From positions 213,584 to 277,583 of the IMG/VR virus record IMGVR_UViG_3300031993_000004: a stretch of DNA of 64,000 bases; one strand, written 5' to 3'. Source of the stretch: a virus (taxonomy: Duplodnaviria > Caudoviricetes). The stretch's first letter is position 1. Every line of letters starts with the position of its first letter. A program made the position numbers and the translations under genes. Positions 21,990 through 27,002 of this stretch are shown here, in pieces. The notes under the pieces are model-generated. The model saw only the letters and a list, made by a program, of their open reading frames with translations. It was not told the origin of the DNA and searched no databases.

Positions 21990-22087
21990 GGAAGATTTTA
22001 TAAAAGAATATCCGTCAATTGGTCGACAAAAATTTAATCTATTTTAATAGAATAGATGGAATCAATAGAAAGGAGGTTGCATATTCT

Positions 22088-22831
22088 ATGCGCAACACTC
22101 GTTGTCCTTTTTGTGGAAAGATATTTAACGATAAGCACAAGTATTGTGATCATATTGCGTTGAAACATAATGAACAGATACCTGACGATCAACAACCTCT
22201 TGAGTTTGCTTATTCATTATTGGTGCATAAACCAGTTGGCCGAATCTGTGTGATTTGTAGAAAGAATCCTGTCAGATTTAATAATGAGACATTGAAGTAT
22301 GACAGACTTTGTGACAATCCTACATGTAAAGATGAATATGTCAAACTCATGAAAGCCCGAATGGTTCGTGTACATGGGCAAGAGCATCTTCTCAATGATG
22401 CAGATATGCAACGTAAAATGATTTACAATCATCACAATGCAAAAGACTTTGTATGGGACGATGAACACAAGTTCCGGATCATAGGAACTTACGAAGAAGA
22501 CTTCTTGAGAAAGTTGAAATCAATTGGGTGGTCTCCAAATGACATTATCGCACCATCTCCAAACAATTACTGGTACAAATGGAAAGATGGTACAACGCAT
22601 TTGTACATCCCAGATTTCTATATTCCATCGCTCGCTCTGGAAGTTGAAATCAAGGAATCGGATAATCAACATCCGAGAATGGCACATGAGCGTGAGATGG
22701 AAGCGCTCAAAGACAAACGTCTTGCTGACGAAGAAAAGAAGACGAATATCCATTACATCAAGATTGTTGACAAAAAATATGATGATTTCATGCGAGACTA
22801 TGTTAAGTCCGATGAAAATAAACCTGATTAA
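22088..22831 (+). CDS. Zinc-finger PD-(D/E)xK nuclease, TnsA-N/T4 gp4-like
   Basis: CPFC..H...H C2H2 finger, a second CxxC...C....C cluster, YIPDFYIPSLALEVEIK; AAGGAGGT RBS before ATG 22088. Confidence 0.75.
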   Translation: MRNTRCPFCGKIFNDKHKYCDHIALKHNEQIPDDQQPLEFAYSLLVHKPVGRICVICRKNPVRFNNETLKYDRLCDNPTCKDEYVKLMKARMVRVHGQEHLLNDADMQRKMIYNHHNAKDFVWDDEHKFRIIGTYEEDFLRKLKSIGWSPNDIIAPSPNNYWYKWKDGTTHLYIPDFYIPSLALEVEIKESDNQHPRMAHEREMEALKDKRLADEEKKTNIHYIKIVDKKYDDFMRDYVKSDENKPD

Positions 22832-23729: not shown

Positions 23730-25958
23730 ATGGCGAAGCCGAGAAAAACTGAACTTCCGGATGAAGTTTTGAAATGGATGAATCCGGATATGGAAGATGA
23801 GACTACGTCGGGTAAGGGAGACGACGAAGATCTCGAAGTAACTCCCGAAGGCGTCGGTGCTGGAGGATTCACAAATTCTCCATTGGTGACATATACGAAG
23901 CTGTCACCATTCAAGAACTCACCGCGTAATCAACCGATCTCGAAGATCATCATTCATCACATGGCAGGCGTTGCATCAGTCGAATCATTCGGCGAGATTG
24001 TTACCGCTCCTGGTCGTGAAATGAGTGCAAACTATGCTATCGGTAACGATGGACGCATTGGTTTGTATTGCTCGGAAGAAGACAGATGCTGGTGCTCATC
24101 TTCTGCATGGGTTGACCACCGCGGAATTGCAATTGAAGTATCAAACTCCAAACTTGGAGAACCTTGGCCAATCTCCAAGAAAGCATGGGATTCTATGATC
24201 AATCTGTGTGCCGATATCTGCAAACGTAACAACATTCCGAAGCTGGTTTACACTGGTGACAAAACAGGTTCACTATGCTTCCACAGATGGTTTGCTGCGA
24301 CAGGTTGTGTTCCGATTGATACAACCGAATTGCTCACCGAAAAGGGCTGGCAATATCTGCGCGATCTGAAGATCGGTGATAAGGTCGCAACAGTAACTAC
24401 GAAAAACTTCTGCATCAAGTTCAATCCGATCGAGAACATGGTCACTCCGAAGTTGGATACGGTATACCATGTCGGTGATATGACGATCACACGTGATCAC
24501 AGAGTTCTGAATCAGGATCCTGGAAAAATGGACGGATACAACCTGAAGCAATATCAGCTGATTTGCGATGGTCCATTCTCCGTTCCGTGCGCAGGTTACA
24601 CTACATTCCCGGGACTGGACATCTCTTCTTCCGAGATGGTCTTCCTGTTGGAAATGCAGCGCATCGGAAATCTGTCTGACGATGGGAAAACTCTCGAGTT
24701 CTCATACATCACAGAAAATCAAGTTGGATACTTTGATACCCTGGTGAAGAACTGTGGGTTTGAATGCACCCGCACGCAGGATGATCTCGGACCGGTGGTT
24801 TTCCGCGTCACATCAATTCGCGCATTGTCTCTGGTGAATCGTTTCTTGTCTGGAAAAGACTTCACTTGGGAATGGCTGAAGATGAATCCGACACAGTTCT
24901 CGTATTTCATCTACAAAGTCACGACGCATGAAAATGGTACATGGAACAGACATTATCATTCTGCGTCGAATGTCAATGTTGATGTCGTTCAGGCAATCTG
25001 CGCATTGAACGAGCGTGCCACGAAGTACGATCCAATCGATGGCATCCTGTACGTGTCAGACACTGGAAGCCGCAGTGTGAATCCACGGGAATCTACAGCA
25101 CAGGAAAACATCATGGTTTCCTGTGTTACCGTTAAAGGTGAATGCTTCCTGATGCGCCAGAACGGAGTTACCACTTTGACCGGCAACTGTCCTGGTGAAT
25201 ATATCTTCTCCCGCGCACAGCAGATCTGTGATGAAGTTAATGCAAAACTTGAGGAGCTTCGTGATGAAGAAATGCAAGAAGCTCTGAAAGAGCAAGCTAA
25301 ACAGAAGGAAACTGCAAAACAGGAAGAAACACTTCCAGAAGTCGTTCCGGTTAAACTGGCAACGGGATGCATGGTTAAGTTCAATTCGCCGGATGCGACG
25401 TATTACACAGGTGCTCCGATTCCTGCATGGGTGAAGAATCAGAATTGGTATGTCACAAGCGTGATTGGTTCACGGGTTGTTCTCGGACGAAATGAATCCA
25501 ATAACGCAAATATCAATTCCCCGGTTGATGCAAAGTATCTGACAGTGATTGAAAATGCTGCCGCACAGCCGGAAAAGAAGTTTGTTCCTTATACGAAGAA
25601 ATTCATACAGGGAACAAAAATCTATGATATCAGCACCAAGATCGCAATTAAGATGATCACCGTTGCCGGCGTGTACACCATCGTCGATGAGGCTGTCACT
25701 GATGGTGTGAAGTACGGCAAACTGAAATCTGGTGCAGGCTGGGTGGTTTTGTCAGCAAATCCTAACATCACCAGCAATATCATCTGTGAAGGTGACACCG
25801 TATCGGTTATCAAGCCGATTACTTACGATGGGAAGGCATTCAATGTCTATGAGAAGTCATACAAGGTTCTCCGTGTCGCCGGAAACCGTGTCGTGATTTC
25901 TTCTGATGGAAAGAATGTCACCGCAGCTGTACAAGCATCGAATCTGATCAAACTTTAA
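23730..25958 (+). CDS. N-acetylmuramoyl-L-alanine amidase (Amidase_2-type endolysin) interrupted by an intein, with C-terminal cell-wall-binding-like domains
   Basis: IIIHHMAG, SANYAIG, IAIEVSN, HRWFAATG|intein|CPG; C-terminal IPAWVK..W and YTIV...YGKLKSGAGWV segments. Confidence 0.88.
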   Translation: MAKPRKTELPDEVLKWMNPDMEDETTSGKGDDEDLEVTPEGVGAGGFTNSPLVTYTKLSPFKNSPRNQPISKIIIHHMAGVASVESFGEIVTAPGREMSANYAIGNDGRIGLYCSEEDRCWCSSSAWVDHRGIAIEVSNSKLGEPWPISKKAWDSMINLCADICKRNNIPKLVYTGDKTGSLCFHRWFAATGCVPIDTTELLTEKGWQYLRDLKIGDKVATVTTKNFCIKFNPIENMVTPKLDTVYHVGDMTITRDHRVLNQDPGKMDGYNLKQYQLICDGPFSVPCAGYTTFPGLDISSSEMVFLLEMQRIGNLSDDGKTLEFSYITENQVGYFDTLVKNCGFECTRTQDDLGPVVFRVTSIRALSLVNRFLSGKDFTWEWLKMNPTQFSYFIYKVTTHENGTWNRHYHSASNVNVDVVQAICALNERATKYDPIDGILYVSDTGSRSVNPRESTAQENIMVSCVTVKGECFLMRQNGVTTLTGNCPGEYIFSRAQQICDEVNAKLEELRDEEMQEALKEQAKQKETAKQEETLPEVVPVKLATGCMVKFNSPDATYYTGAPIPAWVKNQNWYVTSVIGSRVVLGRNESNNANINSPVDAKYLTVIENAAAQPEKKFVPYTKKFIQGTKIYDISTKIAIKMITVAGVYTIVDEAVTDGVKYGKLKSGAGWVVLSANPNITSNIICEGDTVSVIKPITYDGKAFNVYEKSYKVLRVAGNRVVISSDGKNVTAAVQASNLIKL
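24306..25187 (+). mobile_element. Intein, 294 aa, with probably degenerate homing endonuclease
   Basis: Block A CVPIDTTELLTEKGW, block B TRDHRV, block F/G VSCVTVKGECFLMRQNGVTTLTGN followed by +1 Cys; removal restores HRWFAATGCPG. Confidence 0.92.
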
Positions 25959-25997: not shown

Positions 25998-26282
25998 TCA
26001 ATTCGTATATGTCAACTCAGAGACGTCACCGTCCCTGATGCATCTGATCGATATCTGGCACATCCCGTTGTTCGAATTATCGAACTGGGTGTACCATCCG
26101 ATCAGGATGGTGTCCATCGTCTCTGTATCTATAACAATGGAACGCGAATTCGTCCGGTAAACCCAGTTGCCCCGGACGAATTCTATGATCTCTAACGAGC
26201 TTCCGTAACGGAACTCGATTCTATTTCCCGGGACTGTGAATGCACACCCCAGGATATATAACGGAATATATTTATATTTCAT
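25998..26282 (-). CDS. Hypothetical protein
   Basis: ~94 aa, GAAAGGA RBS before ATG 26282. Confidence 0.55.
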   Translation of the reverse strand: MKYKYIPLYILGCAFTVPGNRIEFRYGSSLEIIEFVRGNWVYRTNSRSIVIDTETMDTILIGWYTQFDNSNNGMCQISIRCIRDGDVSELTYTN

Positions 26283-26327
26283 TTGTTTCATCCTTTCCTT
26301 TTCCTTTATTTTTTCTTTCAAAAAAGA

Positions 26328-26369: not shown

Positions 26370-26936
26370 TTAGAACCCACAGTTGACCGAGCCCTTAAGC
26401 CCGGCGGTACCACCTGCGTCGATCGTCGCAGGATCGATTCCATCGACGTCGATGTTGACGCCGCGCTTGGACTTGGACGTGGCAACGATAGTCATGGCCG
26501 TCAGGCCGCCGACCATGGCAAGACCGGCAACGGCAGTCCCGATCAAGACTCTACGTCCGACACGGGCGTTTTTGACAGCTTCCTGCTGGGTGATAGGGAG
26601 AGCTTCAAACTCAGCCTTTCTTGCCGCGCGCCGTTCCTTGCGGCTCGGCTTCAATGCCTTAGCGGCTTTGCGCTCTTCGCGAGCAGCCTTACGCTCAGCG
26701 CGCTTTTCAGCGCGTGCAGCCTTCTTGTCAGTTGCGGTTTCTGCAACGACGTCGTCGGCTTCTGCAGCGTCGTTCATCTCGGTGTTGAGATCTTCGAAGA
26801 CCTCAACTGCGTTCTCAGCAGTATCTGCTGCAGCTTCCACTGCGATTTCATCCGTCGTTGTGACGATCTCGGCTTCCTGCTGCACCTGCTGTGCCTTGGT
26901 GGTGGCTTTCTTGGTATTGGTAGTATTCTTTTTCAT
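26370..26936 (-). CDS. Putative early membrane-anchored Ala/Glu/Lys-rich protein
   Basis: ATG 26936 behind the conserved leader; acidic then basic helical blocks and one C-terminal TM (VLIGTAVAGLAMVGGLTAMTIVA); GC-rich biased codons. Confidence 0.75.
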   Translation of the reverse strand: MKKNTTNTKKATTKAQQVQQEAEIVTTTDEIAVEAAADTAENAVEVFEDLNTEMNDAAEADDVVAETATDKKAARAEKRAERKAAREERKAAKALKPSRKERRAARKAEFEALPITQQEAVKNARVGRRVLIGTAVAGLAMVGGLTAMTIVATSKSKRGVNIDVDGIDPATIDAGGTAGLKGSVNCGF

Positions 26937-27002
26937 AATGGTCCTCACTTTCTCCTCTTACGAGGTTGCGGCGACGCTAAGCTTCTGCGCCGCCTAAATC
27001 AA
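26931..27002 (-). promoter_or_regulatory. Conserved structured 5' leader, copy 1
   Basis: TTGATTTAGGCGGCGCagaagcttaGCGTCGCCgcaaCCTCgtaaGAGGagaaagtgaggaccattATGAAA; 43 nt identical to the copy at 63915-63986. Confidence 0.85.

Follow-up and report, generated by a model that had tools for sequence, protein, structure and literature searches.

A predicted class 1-type intein at the zinc-ligand cysteine of a jumbo-phage endolysin

What is a 294-residue insert doing inside the catalytic domain of a phage endolysin, and does it control when the enzyme becomes active? The question is raised by an amidase gene in a 64,000-nucleotide stretch of DNA, hereafter the window, taken from IMG/VR virus record IMGVR_UViG_3300031993_000004, the genome of an uncultured jumbo phage from the cattle gut (277,583 bp, rated complete). 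The first-pass annotation, made from the letters of this window, proposed that an intein splits the amidase at its zinc-ligand cysteine and that it might serve as a timer or a redox or zinc sensor for lysis. The first part of this proposal is borne out by the predicted fold of the insert, by ungapped intein-free alleles, by the alignment with Cys130 of T7 lysozyme and by the coverage of the Amidase_2 profile; the second is weighed below. Most inteins on record come from proteins of replication, repair and packaging, and the open papers that we searched contain no account of a naturally occurring intein in an endolysin or amidase. The lysin intein belongs to a known kind, the class 1-type LAGLIDADG inteins, in an unusual host protein.

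The insert and its site in the amidase

A search with the insert alone returns 50 proteins (47-81% identity, full coverage), each of which is an Amidase_2 protein that carries this insert. Across the alignment of these homologues, G192, C193, P195, H257, R258, T484, G485, N486, C487, P488 and G489 are invariant, and T254, which opens block B (TRDH in the window), is kept in at least 90%. Cys1 (C193) is also invariant across all 98 inteins of the wider family sample described in the next section. An AlphaFold model of the insert built on the 50-homologue alignment has a predicted local distance difference test score (pLDDT) of 95.4 and a predicted template modelling (TM) score of 0.91. In a Foldseek search against the PDB, this model matches the inteins TliVMA (E-value 5.8e-11), PhoVMA, PI-SceI and PI-PfuI, with E-values up to 1e-5 and probability 1.0, followed by the hedgehog autoprocessing domain (probability 1.0), I-DmoI, I-SceI and mini-inteins. 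The matches to inteins and to the hedgehog domain place a Hint fold in the insert, while the secondary structure of the model reveals an ex-endonuclease part with two LAGLIDADG helices and a twofold alpha-beta-beta-alpha-beta-beta-alpha arrangement, which Foldseek aligns with I-DmoI, I-SceI and I-Tsp061I over 164-176 columns.

At the sequence level, the insert alone has zero matches in Pfam (LAGLIDADG models included), NCBIfam and the PDB, and sequence models thus miss the intein here. The first-pass annotation had looked to intein-free alleles and to profile models for confirmation: the alleles were found (127), whereas the search of the insert against Pfam models gave nothing. The same gap affects annotation at large, where these proteins appear only as "Amidase_2" or "hypothetical". 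A PF14890 scan of the 277-kb genome finds no further intein, and the insert is single-copy.

The 127 intein-free alleles read, ungapped, as ...H-x7-|CPG... exactly at both insert boundaries. The insert itself combines Cys1, a block B TxxH, a terminal Asn followed by Cys+1, the Hint fold and an in-frame insertion with empty homologues, all of which are features of class 1 inteins. The strings from which the intein had originally been recognised (HRWFAATG/CVPIDT, TRDH and TLTGN/CPGEY) are present, and the spliced length is indeed 448 aa. The usual penultimate His (block G:6) is absent and is replaced by Gly485, as had been noticed, a residue that is invariant in all four intein classes resolved below. 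We interpret residues 193-486, on the grounds of sequence and model, as a genuine class 1-type intein in which a LAGLIDADG-fold domain is inserted into a Hint splicing domain. Agreement on this scale far exceeds what chance would give. In three other cattle-gut runs (two other studies), close-strain contigs span both junctions and contain the intein. The contigs of four runs contain no joint that skips exactly 24306-25187, which is weak evidence as contigs drop rare variants.

Class 3 membership was considered for the Cys in block F. Class 3 inteins have no nucleophile at position 1 and use a Trp(B:12)-Cys(F:4)-Thr(G:5) triplet (PMC5050341, PMC6195587), of which only C465 (F:4-like) and Thr484 fit here, with F:4 and B:12 assigned by eye against the model strands. 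The presence of Cys1 and the lack of Trp at B:12 (Val259) rule this class out.

When compared to its top structural matches, TliVMA/PhoVMA (PDB 7qsu, 7qss, 7qst), PI-SceI (1vde) and PI-PfuI (1dq3), the lysin intein has the same architecture of a Hint domain with an inserted LAGLIDADG-fold domain and shares Cys1, TxxH, the C-terminal Asn and a +1 nucleophile, at only 7-13% sequence identity. Unlike inteins of the TliVMA/PI-SceI type, it has lost the catalytic Asp of motif 1 and has a penultimate Gly rather than His; at the block F:4-like position, it also has a Cys in place of the Asp that is usual in class 1 inteins, and it resides in a peptidoglycan amidase rather than in an ATPase or polymerase. 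By analogy, the penultimate Gly would be compatible with fast splicing. The intein of mycobacteriophage Bethlehem gp51, a recombination directionality factor, natively has a penultimate Gly and splices completely and fast, Gly-to-His substitution slows it, and other phage class 1 inteins without the penultimate His also splice, making this residue usual but not obligatory (PMC5050341). The Bethlehem intein thus resembles the lysin intein in being a phage intein with a penultimate Gly, and differs from it in its active endonuclease (toxic in E. coli) and in its host protein; the main text of the same paper describes no lysin host for an intein and does not mention lysin, endolysin or amidase (PMC5050341).

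The lysin gene and its parts are laid out as follows, with residues numbered in the precursor (P0001) unless stated otherwise.

23730..25958, plus strand: endolysin precursor open reading frame (ORF), 742 aa plus stop, with matches to Amidase_2 and PHROG endolysin families
23730..23870, plus strand: N-terminal acidic extension of 47 aa, an in-frame fusion of an ORF that is separate in relatives
23871..24305, plus strand: N-extein (aa 48-192), which makes up most of the Amidase_2 catalytic domain and contains the conserved Tyr102 as well as H76/H77 and H185 as candidate zinc ligands
24306..25187, plus strand: whole predicted intein (aa 193-486, 294 aa), between the exteins
24306..24602, plus strand: N-terminal Hint part (intein aa 1-99), with the invariant Cys1 (C193) and block B T254-x-x-H257
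24603..25019, plus strand: LAGLIDADG-fold ex-endonuclease domain (intein aa 100-238), motif 1 QRIG and motif 2 HENG
25020..25187, plus strand: C-terminal Hint part (intein aa 239-294), with the invariant C465 (block F:4-like) followed by T484-G485-N486
25188..25190, plus strand: codon of Cys+1 (C487), predicted splice nucleophile and, once spliced, predicted third zinc ligand (H185 + 8)
25188..25955, plus strand: C-extein, consisting of the last amidase-fold helix (~aa 487-510), a charged linker and three beta-rich SH3/KOW-like cell-wall-binding modules

Amidase_2 is the sole Pfam family in the lysin ORF (PF01510, aa 67-171, E-value 6e-15, 56 bits against a cut-off of 26), and PHROGs assign the ORF to endolysin families (best E-value 8e-41). 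The Pfam match ends at profile position 112 of 131. More generally, intein-bearing alleles end at 112-117, while intein-free alleles are covered from 2 to 131 (ends 129-131). Conserved within the lysin family are H76/H77, Y102, H185 and C487, which correspond to a His / His-x7-Cys zinc site plus Tyr. As a phmmer search of the PDB with an intein-free allele gave no match and a profile search reached only AmpDh2, in the middle of the domain, we mapped the zinc ligand by hhalign comparison of the intein-free alignment with T7 lysozyme. This comparison, which is short and weak (E-value 0.11), places the His on H123 and the Cys on C131, equivalent to His122 and Cys130 in the literature numbering, which does not count the initiator Met. 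In T7 lysozyme, the zinc site consists of His17, His122 and Cys130, with Tyr46, and the equivalent Cys variant of endolysin Ts2631, C139S, has lost activity (PMC4573324). A model of the intein-free allele P0131 (pLDDT 86.7) matches PlyL, XlyA and the C. perfringens amidase with TM-scores of 0.71-0.80, and in this model, the last amidase-fold helix comes after the Cys. The extein belongs to the same family, with the same zinc site, as PlyL (1yb0/2ar3), XlyA (3rdr), the C. perfringens amidase (7f5i), Ts2631 (6fhg) and T7 lysozyme, none of which, unlike the window lysin, contains an intein.

The intein therefore appears, from these alignments, to directly precede the Cys that is the third zinc ligand of a T7-lysozyme-type amidase. 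Insertion at this point cuts the third ligand and the final helix off from the rest of the amidase domain, and it is a sound inference that the 742-aa precursor would be inactive until spliced. Cloning such lysins as enzybiotics would mean expressing a precursor that must splice. In the precursor, Cys1 takes the sequence position H185+8, and a His-His-Cys site that includes Cys1 could for this reason form before splicing, although this is speculation. Inteins usually sit at active-site nucleophiles.

Intein classes and homing history

To place the window intein among its relatives, we use a family sample of 249 related lysins obtained from C-extein searches at near and shorter lengths; 127 of these lysins lack an intein, and 98 have one at this site. 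Class A is the largest of the four classes, with 63 members including that of the window (290-298 aa), and is defined by a motif 1 of Q-[RK]-[IVHLFM]-G and a motif 2 of H-[EVLHC]-x-x. One sequence that this pattern assigns to class A, P0067, is atypical and class-B-like and is excluded from the per-class statistics. With this exclusion, every aligned class A member (62/62) has Ile, Val, His, Leu, Phe or Met in place of the motif 1 Asp. The window intein has QRIG, with Ile for Asp, and HENG, whose Glu corresponds to Val in most class A relatives; the absence of an intact LAGLIDADG motif, reported in the first reading of the window, is thus confirmed by comparison with the QADG and YDGC of class B. 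Class B (26 members) has both motifs intact, and one of its members, P0111, passes the Pfam LAGLIDADG_3 model (24.9 bits against a cut-off of 22.5). The endonuclease is partly deleted in class C (7 members, 223 aa), and class D consists of two mini-inteins of 145 aa. Common to all classes are Cys1, TxxH, an Arg-Gln in block F, [TVI]-Gly-Asn and Cys+1, as well as an invariant Cys at the block F:4-like position.

The two larger classes are distributed very differently in an extein tree of 219 rows, from which the intein columns were stripped. Nearly all placed class A rows (59/60) fall in one supported clade, in which there is a single empty allele (P0131). This distribution argues that class A has become fixed in one lysin clade and is inherited vertically there, with a nuclease that by its motifs would be dead, and it agrees with the earlier suggestion of a retained, probably non-mobile intein. 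Class B, in contrast, requires 22 changes for 24 rows and adjoins near-identical empty alleles (P0069/P0065, P0066/P0068 and P0084/P0080, branch lengths 0-0.04), which suggests active homing, with the intein spreading or being lost now. The distribution of classes A and B matches what is expected of a homing cycle. Empty alleles are also found on phage contigs of 243-279 kb. As they occur both inside the class A clade (P0131) and in these sister jumbo-phage contigs, the intein is dispensable for the lysin, which works without it. The intein nonetheless persists while the exteins have diverged to ~50% identity.

In metagenome-derived phages, one site in one enzyme family thereby displays a whole intein life cycle: an empty site, invasion by an intein whose endonuclease is active, fixation of an intein whose endonuclease is dead, shortening and reduction to a mini-intein. 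Because near-identical alleles with and without the intein occur naturally, the question of selfish versus regulatory inteins becomes directly testable on an enzyme with an easy lysis assay.

Several further observations concern the family as a whole. A distant Amidase_2 frame of 921 aa on a 95-kb phage contig (L010, 1711-4473) contains two inteins. One is canonical (Cys...Ser-His-Asn, then Thr), matches Pfam LAGLIDADG_3 and lies at another site, before the conserved GVEHE strand; the other is class-B-like, with intact QADG/ADG, and lies at the same CPG zinc-ligand site. An ESM Atlas structure search with P0001 aa 193-486 finds similar full-size inteins in viral clusters (TM 0.83-0.88), which we treat as leads only; their host proteins are other Amidase_2 lysins, a Peptidase_M15_3 lysin, Metallophos, NrdD, DNA polymerase A, an epimerase, a helicase and a ribonucleotide reductase small subunit. 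The lysin gene is also mosaic. Between the window and a related locus (L007), identity is 94% in the N-extein, 46-60% in the intein and 59% in the wall-binding domain, and in close strains (runs X2-X4), DNA divergence is 9-16% in the N-extein versus 2-3% in the intein. Both comparisons point to recombination inside the lysin gene (23871-25187 of the window versus L007, and among the close strains). No close DNA relatives were found in IMG/VR.

A stranded element or a lysis switch

On balance, we think it probable that the lysin intein is a stranded selfish element, nuclease-dead and constitutively spliced, with no evolved role as a lysis timer. In this scheme, the 742-aa precursor would lack a contiguous catalytic site; Cys193 would start the N-S acyl shift, Cys487 would accept the N-extein and Asn486 would cyclise, giving a 448-aa product in which H185-x7-Cys-Pro-Gly and the last amidase helix are restored. 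The homing nuclease would be dead, with the first catalytic Asp lost in the whole of class A, while sister class B with its intact motifs would still spread among empty alleles. The intein probably splices constitutively and would be kept splicing-competent because the phage needs its lysin.

Several results weigh against so simple an account. The ex-endonuclease is not decaying, as its length stays at 138-142 aa in the 50 homologues, and its mean pairwise identity is 0.60. The two Hint parts reach 0.50 and 0.53, the wall-binding domain 0.52 and the N-extein 0.72. In class A, the ex-endonuclease distance is smaller than the Hint distance in 94% of pairs (median ratio 0.81), whereas in class B this is the case in only 6% of pairs (ratio 1.35). 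A domain that evolves more slowly than the Hint parts is not predicted by a purely neutral model of a stranded element. In addition, three cysteines (Cys1, C465 and Cys+1) adjoin the two zinc-binding histidines of the extein, and this arrangement could make splicing metal- or redox-sensitive.

The slow evolution of the ex-endonuclease recurs in the closest strain (P0251), which has 3/139 changes in this domain versus 12/155 in Hint. In the DNA pairs, synonymous divergence (dS) is saturated (>1 or undefined) in every informative pair, and we therefore compare only nonsynonymous divergence (dN, 0.18-0.5 in the ex-endonuclease) and identity and give no omega. From these comparisons, the ex-endonuclease is clearly under purifying selection. 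A per-segment profile of class A locates the relaxed segments in the loop after motif 1 and in the Hint flanks of the endonuclease (intein aa 71-100, 121-130 and 241-270), with the helical core of the dead endonuclease staying conserved. The net charge of Hint is -5.3 in class A versus +6.7 in class B, and T398, H400, W405 and R407 are class-A-specific invariant residues in place of the LAGLIDADG active site. The reversal of rates is due in part to the relaxed Hint flanks, and for this reason it does not, in our view, prove that a new function exists. Most simply, the intein would have lost DNA contact and catalysis and would retain the core because splicing requires it to fold; the ex-endonuclease may have a new function.

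Such a function might be the binding of a protein or ligand, either in the precursor or by the free 33-kDa intein released 1:1 with the lysin, and would not require gating of the lysin. The low rate ratio of class A relative to class B, the like result in the closest strain pair and the four class-specific invariant residues would all fit, and the charge shift speaks against retained DNA binding. We nevertheless consider a new job unlikely, as the ratio comes partly from relaxed Hint flanks rather than from added constraint on the domain, and folding needed for splicing would equally conserve the core. A still mobile intein whose endonuclease remains active, either as a nickase or through unconventional catalytic residues, seems very unlikely: the window keeps an acidic residue in motif 2 (the Glu of HENG), the domain is full length and conserved, and the N-extein and intein differ in history (94% versus 46-60% identity to L007), but the motif 1 Asp is replaced throughout the aligned class A members, the motif 2 acid is Val in most of them, the clade is saturated (59/60 occupied) rather than scattered in its distribution, and the intein is net acidic. 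We give least credence of all to an insert that never splices, in which case the 742-aa protein with a permanent Hint-like domain would be the mature enzyme. Although Pfam intein models do not recognise the insert, it is hard to explain otherwise why Cys1, the block B His, Asn and Cys+1 never vary in >90 homologues of four length classes, and the insert cuts the catalytic domain off from one zinc ligand and from the last helix.

The remaining alternative is a domesticated, conditional intein, in which zinc held among the extein His and Cys1/Cys+1/Cys465, or a disulfide, would hold splicing back until release late in infection and thereby gate the lysin. Its fixation over deep divergence with all splicing residues invariant, the extra Cys, invariant in every class, at the block F:4-like position and the purifying selection on the ex-endonuclease core are in its favour. 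Zinc- or redox-sensitive inteins are also known elsewhere: the mycobacterial DnaB intein DnaBi1, which has a catalytic block F Cys, is described as an oxidative-stress sensor with splicing that responds to such stress, a mechanism of the kind proposed in the first-pass annotation, although DnaBi1 is a class 3 intein with Trp-Cys-Thr and no position-1 nucleophile, whereas the lysin intein has Cys1 and Val at B:12 (PMC6195587). Post-translational processing has likewise been proposed as a trigger for the endolysins CD27L and CTP1L, which are reported to undergo autoproteolytic cleavage between domains, as opposed to the protein splicing proposed for the lysin intein (PMC4110038). The empty alleles inside the clade (P0131) and in sister jumbo-phage contigs, however, argue against a gating role. 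A lysin without a signal sequence waits in the cytoplasm for the holin. With no N-terminal hydrophobic or signal segment evident in the window lysin on inspection of the sequence by eye, the holin should gate it anyway. Insertion at an active-site nucleophile is generic for inteins, and mobile class B has the same Cys pattern, which is therefore no adaptation of class A. The penultimate Gly is also family-wide, mobile class included, and goes with fast splicing in the tested case (PMC5050341). We thus regard the conditional intein as doubtful, and we find improbable the fuller version in which a gut jumbo-phage lineage has domesticated the class A intein, its ex-endonuclease core is selected for a new role, and splicing through the Cys1/Cys465/Cys+1 cluster is a post-translational lysin switch. 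A role as lysis timer or redox/zinc sensor, as put forward in the first-pass annotation, is not supported by the evidence in this analysis.

The phage and the neighbourhood of the lysin gene

The genome encodes a multisubunit RNA polymerase, a DNA polymerase, a topoisomerase and a helicase, and its DNA is found in cattle-gut metagenome runs. The lysin has relatives in cultured phages of Faecalibacterium, Ruminococcus, Clostridium and Streptococcus, which makes a Firmicute host likely. In seven class A loci from IMG/VR, located on contigs of 24-263 kb, the genes follow one another in the order endonuclease / ORF / lysin / small ORF / DNA polymerase. The endonuclease-like gene (22019-22831, plus strand), ~900 bp upstream of the lysin in AT-rich DNA, matches phrog_15137, with a weak HNH match. 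It was considered as a free-standing homing partner of the intein, which is ruled out by its 75-89% conservation in synteny: found at the same position in 7/7 related loci, it belongs to the core genes rather than to sporadic homing genes.

The first 47 aa of the window lysin (MAKPRKTE..., with an acidic tail) correspond in relatives to a separate ORF of 43-46 aa that overlaps the lysin start in an ATGA. The small ORF is separate in two of these loci (L004, 2414-2554; L008, 2423-2554) and is fused in frame in the window and in L007. Right after the lysin comes a 107-aa ORF on the minus strand (25998-26321), which has a lipobox-like start (…YILGC) and is 31-53% conserved at the same place in relatives. 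It is followed by a Lys/Ala/Glu-rich ORF of 192 aa (26370-26948, minus strand), which has one C-terminal hydrophobic helix and no PHROG match and lies in a GC-rich patch (0.54-0.56 versus ~0.44 around it).

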